Positions 18,506 through 29,025 of a stretch of DNA of 49,207 nucleotides are shown here, one piece after another. The stretch is taken from positions 1 to 49,207 of the forward strand of contig JAYVTZ010000002.1 of the NCBI GenBank assembly GCA_043788365.1, written 5' to 3'. The stretch comes from Burkholderiaceae bacterium (lineage in GTDB: Bacteria; Patescibacteriota; Saccharimonadia; Saccharimonadales; AQU-01). Both the position numbers and the translations under genes were made by a program. Under the pieces are notes generated by a model. The model did not search any database, had not been told where the DNA came from, and saw nothing but the letters and a program-made list of their open reading frames with translations. Positions within the stretch are counted from its first letter, which is position 1, and every line of letters begins with the position of its first letter.

Positions 18506-18622
18506 ACAAATATAATACTATAGATTTTGGAAAATTTTGCATTATTGTGATGTAGTAAAAGTTTAAAATCTATTCGCCAGATAGCAGAATAGATAGTTTA
18601 GCTGTTTTTAGTTTATGTATTT

Positions 18623-18631
18623 TGATATAAT
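18623..18631 (+). promoter_or_regulatory. extended -10 promoter candidate for the tRNA-Gly/tRNA-Arg operon
   Basis: TGATATAAT lies 14 nt upstream of the tRNA-Gly 5' end. The -35 is weak. Confidence 0.4.
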
Positions 18632-18644
18632 CAATCCGTTCAAT

Positions 18645-18719
18645 GCGGGTGTCGTACAACGGCCAGTATATGAGTTTTCCAAACTCAGGACGAGGGTTCG
18701 ATTCCCTCCACCCGCACCA
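18645..18719 (+). tRNA. tRNA-Gly (anticodon TCC), CCA encoded
   Basis: Acceptor GCGGGTG/CACCCGC, anticodon stem TGAGT/ACTCA with loop TTTCCAA, T arm GAGGG-TTCGATT-CCCTC. Confidence 0.9.
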
Positions 18720-18730
18720 ACAATAGGTAT

Positions 18731-18807
18731 GCCCCGGTAGCTCAGCGGATTAGAGCAATGGGCTTCTATCCCACAGGTCGGGGGTTCGATTCCCTCCCGG
18801 GGTACCA
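18731..18807 (+). tRNA. tRNA-Arg (anticodon TCT), CCA encoded
   Basis: Acceptor GCCCCGG/CCGGGGT, D arm GCTC..GAGC, anticodon loop CTTCTAT (one A-C mismatch at the top of the stem), T arm GGGGG-TTCGATT-CCCTC. Confidence 0.85.
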
Positions 18808-18988
18808 ATATGAAAACGCTCAGCTTCAGCTGGGCTTTTTATATTGGTCATCTCTGGGCGGGAGGGAATCGAACGGGAATGTCCTAGCGGACATTCCCCG
18901 CCCTTGGTCCGGCAACTAGTTGCCGGATGGCTATGGCCAGAAGTAATTTTCTTTTGGCCAGCTAGGTCGATTCCCTCCCGGGGTACCA
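18808..18988 (+). repeat. structured module U1 ending in an exact 22-nt copy of the tRNA-Arg(TCT) 3' end
   Basis: Terminator hairpin, GGTCATCTCTGGGCGGGAGGGAATCGAAC, then hairpins at 18875-18898, 18908-18927 and 18934-18960, then TCGATTCCCTCCCGGGGTACCA (18967-18988). Homologous to 20041-20216. Confidence 0.8.
18813..18841 (+). terminator. rho-independent terminator after tRNA-Arg(TCT)
   Basis: GCTCAGC-TTCA-GCTGGGC followed by TTTTT. The outer stem extends to pair ACCAATATGAAAA (including the tRNA CCA end) with TTTTTATATTGGT. Confidence 0.65.
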
Positions 18989-19223
18989 AATTAAAAGACT
19001 CGCCGTAAGGTGGGTCTTTTGATTTGGTTACTTGAGTGTATTGATCCCCCGACCGCGACAGCTTGCTGGCGCAAGGTCGGGAGTTCGCTATTCAGTCTAA
19101 TGCCCGAGATTTATCTCGGCGCATAGATTGAATATACCCTAGTATTCCCTCCCGTCAGGCGATGACCATGCCCAAAAGTAATTTTCTTCTGGCCAGCCAG
19201 GTCGATTCCCGCTTGGTGTTCCA
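18989..19223 (+). repeat. module U3: second terminator hairpin, pseudo tRNA-Arg 3' half with an insertion in the T-loop, and a diverged tRNA 3'-end copy
   Basis: AAAAGACTCGCC-GTAA-GGTGGGTCTTTT hairpin. AAGGTCGGGAGTTCG (19073-19087) and ATTCCCTCCCG (19144-19154) are separated by a 56-nt palindromic insert. A TAATTTT-loop hairpin (19170-19194) is followed by GGTCGATTCCCGCTTGGTGTTCCA (19200-19223). Confidence 0.7.
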
Positions 19224-19310
19224 ATTCAACACATCAGATTGTTCTAGTTCGAGCATTTCAAGCTTTTGACTACTTGTATCTGTTATTTAGTTCGAATCTT
19301 AATTGCTCCG

Positions 19311-19319
19311 TGCTAAGAT
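19311..19319 (+). promoter_or_regulatory. extended -10 promoter candidate (TGcTAAGAT) giving a leaderless methyltransferase mRNA
   Basis: TGCTAAGAT ends 6 nt before the ATG at 19326. There is no SD. The element is the same type as the one upstream of HTH-murA. Confidence 0.35.
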
Positions 19320-19325
19320 GGGTGC

Positions 19326-20018
19326 ATGCGAAAACAAAAGCAAATTTGGCTTTCAGAACATACCAATCAGACGACCTTACCAACGATGGCAAATGTAGAG
19401 CCCGCTAGTGGGGTAGTGTTATTCACAGATTGGCTAAACGATAACGGGATTAATTTTGTGGGCAACGCTGTAGATATTGGCTCTGGTAAAGGTCGTAATA
19501 GCGTCCATCTGGCTAAGCTTGGTTACGAAGTGTGGGGTTTGGAATATATAGAGCTAGCAGTTGATTCAGCGAAACAGTTAGCAGACAAAAATGATGTTGG
19601 TAGCAAAGTTCACTTTGAAATTTGTGAAGTTGATTCTGGCTGGAAAATTGAAAATAATTTCTTCGACATCGCTATAGATTCGTTCTCCAGTATCGATATC
19701 GAAACAAAAGAAGGTCGTGAAAAATGTAGAGACGAGATGTACCGTACGCTCAAATCCGGTGGATATGCACTCGTAACTGTCTGCTCATCGGATGATGAGT
19801 GGGAAAAGGAACTCATTTCAAAACATCCAGGTCCAGAGCCTAATAGTACGATTTGGCCACAGAATGGTAAGTTTCAAAAAGACTACGACGAATTAGAACT
19901 TAGAGAATTTTATAAAAAGTTCGAAGCTGTTGATTTAAAGAAAATTAGCAAACCAGCCTTCAAGTTAGAACGCGAAGGTACGGCTACCAACTTGTGGCTT
20001 GTGCTACGCAAAAAATAG
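19326..20018 (+). CDS. class I SAM-dependent methyltransferase
   Basis: Motif I VDIGSGKGRNSVHLA, an acidic residue at the end of beta-2 (GLE), and the post-I/II pattern typical of small-molecule methyltransferases (TehB/UbiE-like). Confidence 0.75.
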   Translation: MRKQKQIWLSEHTNQTTLPTMANVEPASGVVLFTDWLNDNGINFVGNAVDIGSGKGRNSVHLAKLGYEVWGLEYIELAVDSAKQLADKNDVGSKVHFEICEVDSGWKIENNFFDIAIDSFSSIDIETKEGREKCRDEMYRTLKSGGYALVTVCSSDDEWEKELISKHPGPEPNSTIWPQNGKFQKDYDELELREFYKKFEAVDLKKISKPAFKLEREGTATNLWLVLRKK

Positions 20019-20040
20019 TTCTAACCTCTGCAAGAATACT

Positions 20041-20216
20041 GTACCAATATGAAAACTCTCAGCTTTAGCTGGGCTTTTTATATTGGTCATCTCTTGGCGG
20101 GAGGGAATCGAACGGGAATGCATCAGCATGCATTCCCCGCCCTTGGCTTTTCAGCTGTGCCGAAAAGTTGTCATGGACGAATATAATTTTTATTCGTTCG
20201 ACAAGGTCGATTCCCT
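20041..20216 (+). repeat. structured module U2 (paralog of U1), starting with GTACCA and ending with a truncated tRNA-Arg T-arm copy
   Basis: The first ~80 nt are nearly identical to 18802-18881 (3 differences seen). The hairpins at 20114-20137, 20147-20167 and 20175-20199 have different sequences but the same positions. Ends with GGTCGATTCCCT (20205-20216). Confidence 0.8.
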
Positions 20217-20271
20217 TATTCTATAAAAATCCGACACGGATTGAGACAATATTCACTCTCAAAATAAAAAG

Positions 20272-20300
20272 TTGTTAAACTGCCCGTTTTAAGTTATAAT
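20272..20300 (+). promoter_or_regulatory. sigma70 promoter for the tRNA-His cassette
   Basis: TTGTTA (20272-20277), a 17-nt spacer, then TATAAT (20295-20300). Confidence 0.6.
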
Positions 20301-20447
20301 CACCCCTGTTCTTATTGTCTATTGTCTTATCCGAAATCACGAGAGGATTCGTGATTTCGAGAGGAGGAAGCTTTGTGGGGTTACTAATTTTGCGGAGCAA
20401 ATTTATTTTGTCGGCGAAATAGTAACTGCACAATTACATTCCGACGA
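20301..20447 (+). promoter_or_regulatory. conserved structured 5' leader of tRNA-His
   Basis: Hairpin GAAATCACG-AGAGGATT-CGTGATTTC (20333-20358), GAGAGGAGGAAGCTTTGT, the long-range stem GTTACTA/TAGTAAC, and the 17-mer ACAATTACATTCCGACG (20430-20446). Homologous to 28581-28778. Confidence 0.7.
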
Positions 20448-20525
20448 GGCGAGCTTAGCTCAGTTGGTTAGAGCGCCGGGTTGTGGTTCCGGAGGTCGTG
20501 GGTTCAATTCCCATAGTTCGCCCCA
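20448..20525 (+). tRNA. tRNA-His (anticodon GTG) with encoded G-1 and CCA
   Basis: G-1 then acceptor GCGAGCT/AGTTCGC, discriminator C, anticodon stem CCGGG/TCCGG with loop TTGTGGT, T arm GTGGG-TTCAATT-CCCAT. Confidence 0.9.
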
Positions 20526-20528
20526 TAT

Positions 20529-20555
20529 TAAAAAGTCTCACACAGTGAGGCTTTT
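20529..20555 (+). terminator. rho-independent terminator after tRNA-His
   Basis: AAAAAGTCTCAC-ACA-GTGAGGCTTTTT. The outer stem pairs GCCCCATATT (the tRNA 3' end) with AATATGGGC. Confidence 0.65.
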
Positions 20556-20705
20556 TAATATGGGCAAGCTCGTGGCATGGACTTCCACGACACGAGAGCT
20601 TTAGCTCACGTTAGTCGTGGCAATCAATAATTAGTCTTAGCCCCATAGCTCCAACGGAGCGGGCGGCTGGATTAATTTCACGCCGGTATTCCATAGTTCG
20701 CCCCA
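20556..20705 (+). other. tRNA-His trailer module ending in a duplicated tRNA-His 3' end
   Basis: Structured stretch, conserved AGCGGGCGGCTGGATTAAT (20658-20676), then ATTCCATAGTTCGCCCCA (20688-20705), compared with the tRNA's ATTCCCATAGTTCGCCCCA. Confidence 0.7.
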
Positions 20706-20708
20706 TTT

Positions 20709-20735
20709 AAAAAGTCTCAGAAAGTGAGGCTTTTT
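20709..20735. terminator. second terminator hairpin (near-copy of 20529-20555), also placed to terminate the convergent oxidoreductase gene
   Basis: AAAAAGTCTCAG-AAA-GTGAGGCTTTTT, lying 19 nt from the stop of 20754..21692. Confidence 0.6.
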
Positions 20736-20753
20736 AAATTTTAGACAACGTGA

Positions 20754-21692
20754 TTAACCATTTATTGAAATAGCCACCTTGCCTTTTATAGAGCCACTTT
20801 CACGTGCCTCAAATGCTTCTTTAATCTGATCAAGTGTAAAGATTTTATCAACATGGACAGTCACGACCCCATCATTAATTAATTTGGCCAGCTCACCTAA
20901 CTGCTCTGTTGAAGTGTGGGTCGATTGGTAGATTGCAGTCACACCAAACTTTTCGGATAACTCAGTGTTGGGCTGAGCCGCCATAGATACGATTACGCCA
21001 CCCTTTTTCAAAACAACAAATGACTTGTCGTAAGTTTCACCGCCAACGGTGTCAAAAACGGCGTCATAGTCTTTAACTATGTCTTCAAACTTTTGAGATT
21101 TATAATCAATGACTTCGTCGGCGCCCTGGCCTTTGGCAAACTCAACACCGTCACCTGTCGCGGTTGTCGTGACGTATACGCCTAGATGTTTGGCTAGTTG
21201 GATTGCAACAGACCCAATACCACCAGCGCCGCCATGGACTAATATCTTCTGACCTGACTGTAGTTTCATGTGTTCGTAAATGACTTGGTAAGCACTAAGT
21301 CCTGTCAATACAATAGCTGCCGCATCGGTATAGTTTAGCTCGGTCGGCATTTTACCAACTTGACTAGCATTAGTTAAAGCAAATTCCGCAAATGCGCCAC
21401 TACTGCCACCAACCACGTTAGCCTGTCCGTATACTTTATCTCCAACTGTAAAATCAGAAACACCCGAACCAACTTCAGTAATTACACCAGCGATATCGCC
21501 ACCAAGTGTAACCGGCAAAGTTAGGGGAATCATATCTTTTAGATAGCCTTCACGCACCATAGTATCAAAAGGATTAATGCTACTTGCATGAACTTCTACT
21601 AAAATCTGACCTTCTCCTGCAACTGGTTTAGTAGTTTCTTGAACCTTAACGGTATCGGCATGTCCGTACTGATTAATTTGTGCTGCTTTCAT
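20754..21692 (-). CDS. NADPH:quinone oxidoreductase / zinc-type medium-chain dehydrogenase family
   Basis: MDR fold with the nucleotide-binding motif VHGGAGGIGSVAIQLAK and an N-terminal GroES-like domain. Confidence 0.8.
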   Translation of the reverse strand: MKAAQINQYGHADTVKVQETTKPVAGEGQILVEVHASSINPFDTMVREGYLKDMIPLTLPVTLGGDIAGVITEVGSGVSDFTVGDKVYGQANVVGGSSGAFAEFALTNASQVGKMPTELNYTDAAAIVLTGLSAYQVIYEHMKLQSGQKILVHGGAGGIGSVAIQLAKHLGVYVTTTATGDGVEFAKGQGADEVIDYKSQKFEDIVKDYDAVFDTVGGETYDKSFVVLKKGGVIVSMAAQPNTELSEKFGVTAIYQSTHTSTEQLGELAKLINDGVVTVHVDKIFTLDQIKEAFEARESGSIKGKVAISING

Positions 21693-28580: not shown

Positions 28581-28778
28581 AGCCCTGTTCAAATATCTTT
28601 TGTCCTATCCAATTTTGCGAGAGGATTCGCAAAATCATCAGGAAAAAGCTTTCTTGTTTTTCCGAAATTGAGAGAGGATTCTCAATTTCGAGAGGAGGAA
28701 TCTTTGTATGGTTTATAGTATTGTTGGTCAAACTTGTTTTGCCAACAATACAGAAACCATACAATTACATTCCGACGC
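28581..28778 (+). promoter_or_regulatory. conserved structured 5' leader of tRNA-Pro (two hairpin modules)
   Basis: Hairpins ATTTTGCG-AGAGGATT-CGCAAAAT (28612-28635) and GAAATTGAG-AGAGGATT-CTCAATTTC (28664-28689). GAGAGGAGGAATCTTTGT. Nested perfect stems at 28706-28714/28754-28762 and 28718-28727/28742-28751. The 17-mer ACAATTACATTCCGACG (28761-28777). Confidence 0.7.
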
Positions 28779-28854
28779 CGGGGTGTGGCGCAGTTGGTAG
28801 CGCGCGCGGTTTGGGACCGCGAGGTCGAAGGTTCGAGCCCTTTCACCCCGACCA
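28779..28854 (+). tRNA. tRNA-Pro (anticodon TGG), CCA encoded
   Basis: Acceptor CGGGGTG/CACCCCG, D arm GCGC..GCGC, anticodon stem CGCGG/CCGCG with loop TTTGGGA, T arm GAAGG-TTCGAGC-CCTTT. Confidence 0.9.
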
Positions 28855-28862
28855 TATAAAAA

Positions 28863-28885
28863 GGCCCACGAAAGTGGGCTTTTTT
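28863..28885 (+). terminator. rho-independent terminator after tRNA-Pro
   Basis: GCCCAC-GAAA-GTGGGC followed by TTTTTT. The extended stem pairs CCGACCATATAAAAAG (the tRNA 3' end) with TTTTTTATATGGTCGG. Confidence 0.65.
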
Positions 28886-29025
28886 ATATGGTCGGTGACG
28901 AGCTCCTACTTTCGACCCAAGATTTTTTGCCCTGCAAAAAAGACGGAAGGTCGAAGGTTCGGTCATCAGTCACAGGCCCCAGCGTAGCGGGCGCCTGGAT
29001 TGATGTGCGCATGCCCTTTCTCCCC
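28886..29025 (+). other. tRNA-Pro trailer module: pseudo tRNA-Pro 3' half split in the T-loop
   Basis: AGGTCGAAGGTTCG (28948-28961, identical to 28822-28835), a 51-nt insert containing AGCGGGCGCCTGGATTGAT (28986-29004), then GCCCTTTCTCCCC (29013-29025), compared with the tRNA's GCCCTTTCACCCC. Confidence 0.7.

Follow-up and report, generated by a model that had tools for sequence, protein, structure and literature searches.

Why do two partly near-identical, strongly folding stretches of DNA lie behind a tRNA-Arg gene in a Saccharibacteria genome? The question is raised by a 49,207-nt stretch of contig JAYVTZ010000002.1 (assembly GCA_043788365.1), hereafter the window, in which an initial annotation had singled out two modules, U1 and U2, as paralogs with compensatory stem changes and as a candidate structured RNA of a family that it did not recognise. 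We find that U1 and U2 are not free-standing paralogous RNA genes but repeat units of the 3' trailer of tRNA-Arg(TCT), made of inverted and direct copies of the tRNA 3' end. The observation stands and is of greater interest than a pair of paralogs would be, and it does not amount to an unprecedented class of RNA. The modules form a new sequence family, and they are evidence that a kind of tRNA-linked repeat already known, though unexplained, is far more widespread: no Rfam family matches them, in line with the initial annotation, but their design has a precedent in the 178-bp repeats of Escherichia coli tyrT (Rfam RF00391, RtT). In our preferred reading, U1 and U2 are RtT-type, T-loop-anchored tRNA-trailer units of ~176 nt, which were added stepwise at the tRNA gene and whose fold is selected as a folded single strand. 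We give this reading a probability of about 0.5.

The array is anchored by tRNA-Arg(TCT), which ARAGORN and Rfam (tRNA, 64.6 bits) place on the forward strand at 18731-18807, next to a tRNA-Gly gene found by the same two programs (18645-18719); U1 thus begins at the very end of tRNA-Arg. Homology between U1 and U2 starts at GTACCA (18802), with the base of a long terminator hairpin 2 nt further on, and the units extend over 18802-18977 and 20041-20216, the limits given originally (18808-18964 and 20047-20204) being slightly too short. The terminator hairpin of U1 (18804-18848, forward strand; inverted pair I18, direct family D1 and a terminator-like site call) has a core stem at 18818-18835 that is followed by a T run, and its outer arms, ACCAATATGAAAA and TTTTTATATTGGT, begin in the ACCA end of tRNA-Arg. 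Further along the same strand lies the R copy (CGGGAGGGAATCGAAC, 18859-18874; inverted pairs I8, with 16 nt and 100% complementarity, and I13), a perfect 16-nt inverted copy of 18784-18799, that is, of the T-loop, the 3' strand of the T-stem and the start of the acceptor strand. Three hairpins follow, all on the forward strand: hairpin 1 (GGGAATGTCC-TAGC-GGACATTCCC, 18875-18898), the conserved joiner CGCCCTTGG (18899-18907), hairpin 2 (TCCGGCAAC-TA-GTTGCCGGA, 18908-18927) and hairpin 3 (18934-18960), which has a 10-bp stem and the conserved 7-nt loop TAATTTT. Hairpin 3 and the NNNAGGTCG behind it form the conserved right end of units 1, 2 and 4 of the array (direct family D3; copies at 18933, 19168 and 20173), which has the form hairpin 3 (TAATTTT), NNN, AGGTCG.

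U1 ends in the F copy, or direct repeat 1 (TCGATTCCCTCCCGGGGTACCAA, 18967-18989, forward strand; direct family D2), an exact 23-nt repeat, with 0 mismatches, of tRNA-Arg 18786-18808, from inside the T-loop through CCA. The F copy lacks the 5' strand of the T-stem and one T of the T-loop, and is therefore unable to form a T-arm. The R copy provides the 5' strand and the F copy the 3' strand of a closing helix, P1, which comprises 14 bp in U1 (18859-18872 with 18967-18980; I13, 14 nt, 100%) and 10-11 bp in U2; within this helix, GGGAATCGA (18864-18872) pairs with TCGATTCCC (18967-18975). P1 closes a four-way junction containing the three hairpins, and AGGTCGATTCCC, previously described as a conserved single-stranded joiner, is thus a strand of this helix; conservation of the hairpin-3 loop TAATTTT and of the string CATTCCCCGCCCTTGG is confirmed.

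Both modules are present at the places originally given, and 18802-18907 and 20041-20146 share 91% identity over 106 nt (direct family D1). The alignment bears out the three substitutions counted in the first ~80 nt (18818, 18827 and 18856), and a 22-nt core with the pattern GGGAGGGAATCGAACGGGAATG occurs twice in the window, with 0 occurrences expected by chance. Beyond the 106-nt tract, identity is ~50% and the stem sequences are unrelated; the three hairpins quoted in the initial annotation do stand at equal positions on unlike stems. Within the near-identical tract, the apex of hairpin 1 carries a cluster of changes that preserves the pairing. Because U1 and U2 are mosaics of this kind, most of their "compensatory changes" are replacements of whole hairpins: the conserved fold holds good, the picture of recent paralogs covarying step by step does not. 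The mosaic agrees with gene conversion or recombination between old variants, and not with divergence of a recent duplicate.

U1 folds with -82.8 kcal/mol (z = -7.7 compared with dinucleotide shuffles) and U2 with -56.1 kcal/mol (z = -6.1), and the z-scores of eight further modules range from -4.3 to -8.5. Conservation of the secondary structure beyond chance, as had been proposed, is borne out by a covariance model made from U1 and U2 alone (R1), which retrieved four further modules with E-values between 6e-19 and 4e-6: two on contig L133, behind tRNA-Arg (74.8 bits, E = 6e-19) and tRNA-His (31.1 bits, E = 4e-6), one at L138 (58.9 bits, E = 2.9e-14) and one at L129 (55.3 bits, E = 3.4e-13). 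The model also recognizes a remnant in the unit following U1 (U3, 19119-19210; 25.5 bits, E = 1.8e-4). We define type-A modules by R1 and a model R2, which scores U1 at 106.8, U2 at 101.5, L133-Arg at 100.8, L138 at 93.5, L129 at 86.9 and L133-His at 51.5 bits. The features of the type were found: P1 is formed by the inverted and direct copies of the T-loop and T-stem, three hairpins are present together with the joiner C(C/G)GCCC, and a tRNA gene and its terminator lie on the 5' side. Neither R1 nor R2 found extra copies in 14 further Saccharibacteria loci or, in the window, anything besides U1, U2 and the U3 remnant.

The added copies retain their stem pairing. In the alignment of the six type-A modules, 97.5% of pair cells are standard (76% in shuffles, 26-52% with slid partners), 23 of 38 pairs have changes on both sides, and the covariation score is 0.52, compared with 0.17 in shuffles and attained by 0 of 500 shuffles; the alignment was fitted to the model, so that these pair and covariation numbers are somewhat inflated, and the slid controls make the conclusion on fold conservation robust despite this. 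In helix 2 (hairpin 1), 8 of 10 pairs are double-changed across the six modules, and hairpin 2 of the relatives carries GNRA loops in three modules (GTAA, GCAA and GTAA). Comparison of the window with L133 and L138 shows complete turnover of the terminators and of the hairpin-2 and hairpin-3 stems, and constancy of P1, the joiner CCGCCC, the loop TAATTTT and CAAGG, which looks like purifying selection on structure. On the tRNA-sense strand, G-T cells outnumber A-C cells by 8 to 2 in the same alignment, and 10 of 13 modules fold more stably on this strand than on the other. Together these counts point to the tRNA-sense strand as the folding strand, which fits a co-transcribed RNA and a single-stranded DNA alike.

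Searches of the window and 10 loci against Rfam, at gathering and at permissive E-values, returned only tRNA, tmRNA and RNase P. ARAGORN and Rfam report five true tRNAs only, and the modules have no match to tRNA, tmRNA or tmRNA_permuted at gathering (tmRNA_permuted reaches 18.1 bits over 18689-18872, its gathering score being 47). We rejected a tRNA-like structure, a minihelix and a tmRNA piece as descriptions of the module: the acceptor 3' strand has no partner, and there are no model matches.

Modules of this design are linked to tRNA and tmRNA genes elsewhere. The four further type-A modules sit behind tRNA-Arg, tRNA-His and tRNA-Glu genes in other contigs. One of these, L133, is a Saccharibacteria contig with the tRNA order Arg-His-Pro, as in the window; in its tRNA-His trailer module, a locus outside the pattern selection described next, P1 is re-tuned to the His T-loop (GGGACTTG / CAAGTCCC). 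A metagenome scan for two P1 arms 75-105 nt apart yielded 24 matching stretches. For 11 of these, which represent nine distinct modules, a gene ends immediately upstream, and a copy of its 3' end closes the module. The host genes are tRNA-Glu(CTC) (two), Ala(CGC), Leu(TAA), Thr(CGT), Arg(TCT) (two), Pro(CGG) and one tmRNA; the rest of the 24 are chance matches or opposite-strand tRNA genes. As the search pattern fixes both of its arms, P1 is not independent evidence in these matches, and the independent features are the location, the repeat of the remaining tRNA end and the internal hairpins. R1 scores GC-rich modules weakly, at 13-20 bits. On L141, a 530-kb metagenome contig, the module (528-651) is located between the tmRNA gene (124-477) and an opposite-strand RNase P RNA gene (772-1112).

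By the names of homologues of its P-type ATPase, the organism of the window is a Candidatus Saccharibacteria. Relatives differ in whether they carry a module. Orthologous trailers are module-free in L152, L154, L160, L161, L162 and L164. In L152 and L162, tRNA-Arg and tRNA-His are 45-49 nt apart, and in L154, the closest relative (ATPase 81% identical), the tRNA-His terminator is directly followed by a dehydrogenase gene. A type-A module stands behind tRNA-Arg in three genomes (window, L133 and L138), and their tRNA-Arg genes are identical, so that vertical inheritance within a clade and T-arm-specific insertion are both possible.

Other structured trailers were seen at these loci. Trailer units that end in a tRNA 3'-end repeat but have other interiors occur behind tRNA-Sec (two tandem units, L140 1783-2112), tRNA-Asn (L135 7199-7420) and tRNA-Pro (L152 12500-12770), and a different repeated hairpin trailer, CGTC...GGCCTC...GAGGCC...CTCCTTT, stands behind tRNA-Gly and tRNA-His in L162 (4300-4770; also in L163). 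The tRNA trailers of this group seem prone to gaining structured repeats generally. Small open reading frames with a GIY-YIG domain stand beside the tRNA-Gly/tRNA-Arg pair in the Saccharibacteria contigs L138 (300-567) and L152 (9337-9753), of which one has the module and one does not. A scan of a contig collection with TAATTTTN{11,15}AGGTCGATTC proved too loose, all 119 matches being chance; many of them fall in a conserved coding stretch that, by eye and from its sequence context, resembles secA.

Downstream of U1, the array continues with U3, a methyltransferase gene and U2, all on the forward strand. U3, the second unit (18990-19204; I7, I3/I4, D3, D4 and D6, and the R1 match given above), opens with a terminator-like hairpin, behind which the 3' half of the tRNA recurs in inverted, decayed form (~19034-19054), with a small hairpin after it. 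Its forward copy, AAGGTCGGGAGTTCG (19073-19087), is interrupted in the T-loop by a 56-nt hairpin (19088-19143) and resumes as ATTCCCTCCCGTCAGGCGATGACCA (19144-19168), i.e. ATTCCCTCCCG...ACCA; the right end is a degraded hairpin 3 with AGGTCG. Direct repeat 2, a decayed tRNA 3' end (ATTCCCGCTTGGTGTTCCAA, 19205-19224; D4), comes next, and between it and U2 lies a gene for a TehB-like, SAM-dependent methyltransferase (19326-20018; Pfam). This gene, which is missing in the related genomes where tRNA-Arg and tRNA-His are 45-49 nt apart (L152 and L162), is probably cargo of the array.

U2 is a complete second unit with no tRNA attached (20041-20216; model match 20103-20215). It comprises a long terminator hairpin (20043-20087), an R copy (20098-20113), hairpins 1 (20114-20137), 2 (20147-20167) and 3 (20174-20200) and the 3' strand of P1 (20207-20215); past ATTCCCT the likeness to the tRNA end is lost. 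Direct repeat 1 agrees with the tRNA end at 20 of 20 positions, and repeats 2 and 3 (the latter at 20210) are progressively decayed with distance from the tRNA. Inverted 6-mers, AGAATA (20033-20038) and TATTCT (20217-20222), flank U2 as if it had been inserted in the middle of a small palindrome past the methyltransferase gene; this may be chance.

The design of U3 recurs in the window in the trailers of tRNA-His (20526-20708) and tRNA-Pro (28855 to ~29030), which share the inserted hairpin and which we term type B. In these units, the tRNA 3' half comes first, inverted and decayed; a small hairpin and then a forward copy, whose T-loop holds a hairpin of ~50-60 nt, lead on to a tRNA 3'-end repeat. 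In the tRNA-His trailer, the repeat takes in the terminator (~50 nt, 91-94% identical). All three inserted hairpins (His, Pro and U3) resemble each other and are related (..AGTC..GCCC...GGGCG.CT.GATT.AT). A homology between the type-A interior and the type-B inserted hairpin was considered on inspection by eye and is not convincing.

Upstream of the same two genes, a conserved leader of ~120 nt is shared between promoter and tRNA (tRNA-His, 20329-20448; tRNA-Pro, 28657-28778). It contains a hairpin with compensatory changes, GAAAT[CACGA]GAGGATTC[TCGTG]ATTTC in one and GAAAT[TGAGA]GAGGATTC[TCTCA]ATTTC in the other, the motif GAGAGGAGGAA, a terminator-like hairpin with a T run (20370-20398) and an invariant ACAATTACATTCCGACG immediately 5' of the tRNA. 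The tRNA-His gene of L148 has a leader as well, of ~165 nt. The element looks like an attenuator or leader RNA ahead of tRNA genes. At the other end of the tRNA genes, terminator stems with A-tract and T-tract flanks reach into the ACCA or CCCCA end (18804-18848, 20522-20564, 28851-28893, L148 and L151), so that the mature 3' end of the tRNA would be paired in the primary transcript.

How might such an array have come about? Each unit consists of a replacement tRNA 3' end with a terminator hairpin, an R copy, three hairpins and an F copy starting from the T-loop. In the reading that we prefer, units would be joined singly at the tRNA T-loop, either through site-specific recombination of the integrase type or through a templated process equivalent to it, and every new unit would restore the tRNA 3' end, bring a terminator and shift the older units downstream. 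The outcome would be an array of the order tRNA - U1 - U3 - methyltransferase - U2, its repeats decaying away from the tRNA. The units would be non-autonomous, with an enzyme supplied in trans. Their fold would be maintained by selection on the tRNA-sense strand, and the unit would thus act as a folded single strand. This strand may be a trailer RNA made by read-through, whose 3' end resembles that of the tRNA, like the RtT RNA of E. coli; or it may be a single-stranded DNA serving as recombination substrate, with P1 mimicking the T-arm of the target.

Several observations, in addition to the model-fitted alignment and the pattern-fixed P1 arms mentioned above, weigh against this reading. With respect to mobility, a Pfam scan of 40 open reading frames (ORFs) of the window identified no integrase, recombinase, transposase, reverse transcriptase or homing enzyme; the region belongs to the core chromosome and encodes MurB, SHMT, RNase Y, RecA, RecX, type IV pilus proteins and RuvB. 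A rough listing of the ORFs at the metagenomic loci, confined to first residues and made with no family search, had nothing integrase-like beside the modules. U1 had no blastn match in phage and plasmid collections, and three patterns run on viral contigs gave only chance matches or opposite-strand tRNA genes. To our knowledge, a unit of 176 bp is far below the size of any integrative element. The T missing from the F copy is odd for a crossover region, which should match in both partners, and the identity of tRNA-Arg in the window, L133 and L138 means that vertical inheritance of a functional trailer could explain the distribution without mobility. With respect to expression, we found no promoter-like site upstream of U1 or U2, and a strong intrinsic terminator precedes every Saccharibacteria module; expression of a module RNA would therefore need read-through. 

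The main rival is a trailer RNA that acts in cis, is inherited vertically and does not move. It would be part of the read-through tRNA transcript, with a role in 3' processing, as a termination back-up or in mimicry of the tRNA 3' end, and the tRNA-end repeat would go back to a local duplication or to a template switch in the vicinity of the terminator palindrome. Since terminator stems often reach the ACCA end of the tRNA in these genomes, extension of the palindrome could have made the R copy. The identical tRNA-Arg of the window, L133 and L138, with the module at the same place, agrees with this account, as do the GNRA loops on hairpin 2, the excess of G-T over A-C pairs on the sense strand and the turnover of the terminators and of the stems of hairpins 2 and 3 around a constant P1, CCGCCC, TAATTTT and CAAGG, the pattern expected of purifying selection on a structured RNA. 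The stable, processed RNA reported for E. coli RtT points the same way. The strong terminator between tRNA and module speaks against it, and so do the location of U2 away from any tRNA and the different module types behind tRNA-His in the window and in L133. The design is moreover shared by nine or more different tRNA species and one tmRNA on unrelated contigs, and many relatives are wholly without a module. We regard this account as possible, if rather unlikely.

Two other explanations appear improbable to us, to a similar degree. The proposal of the initial annotation, a free-standing, trans-acting small RNA (sRNA) family with its own promoter and terminator and unrelated to tRNA, is compatible with the conserved fold, with the lack of a matching Rfam family, with the position of U2, which is not beside a tRNA, and with the terminator-like hairpin that follows U1. 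It does not account for both strands of P1 being copies of the adjacent tRNA 3' end or for P1 (helix 1) differing from one tRNA to another; the relatives are all situated in trailers of tRNA or tmRNA genes, and neither copy has a promoter-like site upstream. The modules could instead be inert integration scars, attL/attR remnants of deleted islands whose hairpins would be kept only by mutational palindrome correction, with no structural selection. Fragments of tDNA 3' ends are a pervasive by-product of integration (PMC9897764, PMC4383910), U3 and direct repeats 2 and 3 are visibly decaying, and the change at the apex of hairpin 1, in an otherwise identical 106-nt tract, could be one templated event. 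But scars of different islands should not have a common internal architecture, and the modules have four helices with 97.5% pairing in six copies that share little stem sequence, invariant nucleotides in specific loops and joiners, and a size and boundaries that are constant across hosts.

A protein-coding role, comparable to that of tpr inside the E. coli RtT repeat, could be argued from an ATG that opens MKTLSFSWAFYIGHL... in both units (18810 and 20049), and this frame would render two of the three substitutions of the common tract synonymous. The substitutions however affect the loop of the terminator and the edge of the stem, positions at which they are hairpin-neutral; the frame ends after 25 codons in U1 (18810-18887), in the loop of hairpin 1, compared with 45 codons in U2 (20049-20186), and there is no ATG at that place in L133, L138 and L129. 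A small protein is thereby effectively refuted, the frame not being conserved, and we give it hardly any credence; it is probably not a gene.

Among known systems, we considered retron msr-msd, T-box, IS200/IS605-type ends, IS110 bridge RNA and group I/II intron guides and rejected all of these: the modules lack the motifs or internal loops that define them, and neither a reverse transcriptase nor a transposase is encoded nearby. Miniature repeats of the MITE, REP, BIME and CIME kinds resemble the modules in being short, non-coding, highly structured and repeated, and in that their presence differs between relatives. The module however has inverted-arm flanks of CTGGG and GGGTA and no target-site duplication, occurs in just two or three copies in 49 kb and is strictly tied to the 3' ends of tRNA and tmRNA genes.

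Islands and prophages in tRNA genes (Islander; phage Ms6 with its T-loop attB) share more with the array. As in these, an intact tRNA is accompanied by same-orientation repeats of its 3' end (18786-18808 and 18967-18989, decayed at 19205 and 20210), the junction is in the T-loop/T-stem region, a tmRNA gene is targeted as well, tandem arrays form at one tDNA, and the element brings a replacement 3' end. Tyrosine-integrase insertions are characterized by crossover in the T-loop/T-stem, 3' tDNA fragments, a preference for tmRNA genes and tandem arrays (PMC4383910; PMC1762012; PMC9897764). The window has all signatures of integrase insertion except the integrase gene and the size: in the terms of Islander, an intact tDNA and a displaced same-orientation fragment are present, and an integrase between them is not. 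The units differ from islands in their length of 176-235 bp, in having no integrase and no genes save the one methyltransferase of the array, in holding an inverted copy of the target together with a conserved internal fold, and in the displaced copy, which lacks one T of the T-loop.

A further possible parallel is with integron attC sites and the attP(+) of CTX phage, in which structure is kept and sequence is not, and two inverted core-like arms pair and rebuild a target-like duplex. P1 has an unpaired base, the A of GAAC opposite the missing T, as attC sites do, and the ORF followed by a module in the array is reminiscent of an attC cassette. The motifs RYYYAAC and GTTRRRY of attC are absent, the ends of the unit being AATCGAAC and GGTCGATT; the Pfam scan of the window ORFs identified no IntI or Xer gene nearby, and the module interior is a three-hairpin junction rather than a simple bulged hairpin.

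The closest precedent is RtT, the product of rttR, which according to Bosl and Kersten, writing in 1991 (a paper cited in PMC3318445), is reportedly a processed, stable RNA derived from the tyrT transcript. In the 178-bp repeat of E. coli tyrT-tyrV, GGGGAAGGAT-GA-GAACCTTCG is an inverted copy of the tRNA-Tyr 3' half, and it is followed by a short loop, a forward copy, AAGGTTCGA, with a ~65-nt insertion in the T-loop, and the end AATCCTTCCCCCACCACCA. RF00391 recognizes four E. coli copies with 133-137 bits, and its consensus closes on a helix of the inverted with the direct copy. U1 and U2 likewise are repeated in the same-strand 3' trailer of a tRNA gene, U1 abutting tRNA-Arg(TCT) with U3 and U2 downstream; U1 ends in a tRNA 3'-end copy that begins at the T-loop, and its closing helix pairs this copy with an inverted one. 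The likeness is closest in U3 and the tRNA-His and tRNA-Pro trailers, in which the 3' half occurs first inverted and then, past a loop, in forward orientation with a hairpin inserted in its T-loop. U1 and U2, by contrast, are devoid of the forward 5' strand of the T-stem and have three hairpins in place of the one inserted block of RtT. The Saccharibacteria modules have a terminator ahead of them and no tpr-like ORF, and RtT itself is limited to tRNA-Tyr of enterobacteria. RF00391 has no match in the window at gathering (45 bits), none at E ≤ 10 on 18600-20800 and none at E ≤ 5 on the metagenomic modules, and R1 and R2 have no match on the E. coli RtT repeats. The modules and RtT thus share their architecture, sequence homology between them is not detectable, and membership in RF00391 fails.

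At the tyrT locus, a mobilome-sequencing preprint describes increased coverage of exonuclease-resistant DNA under stress (bioRxiv 10.1101/2024.07.17.603846). A bolder and, in our judgment, doubtful extension of the preferred reading is that the Saccharibacteria units, the GC-rich tRNA and tmRNA modules and RtT are all miniature non-autonomous elements, spanning phyla, which enter the T-loop of tRNA and tmRNA genes as folded single strands with P1 as T-arm mimic, much as integron attC sites or the CTX phage hairpin do at their targets. If true, such a class of elements, with each insertion restoring the tRNA 3' end, would give an origin to the 45-year-old tyrT repeats, which, like RtT RNA, have been on record since the late 1970s without explanation. 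The very small genomes of Saccharibacteria keep structured non-coding units of ~180 nt, which argues that these units do something or spread. Partial tRNA copies with stable hairpins can mislead tRNA annotation, island finders and searches for non-coding RNA, and the new modules provide comparative material for testing the function of RtT-type units. Shared by many tRNA species and tmRNA, in candidate phyla and in other lineages, the architecture known from tyrT is a general phenomenon of tRNA genes rather than an enterobacterial curiosity.

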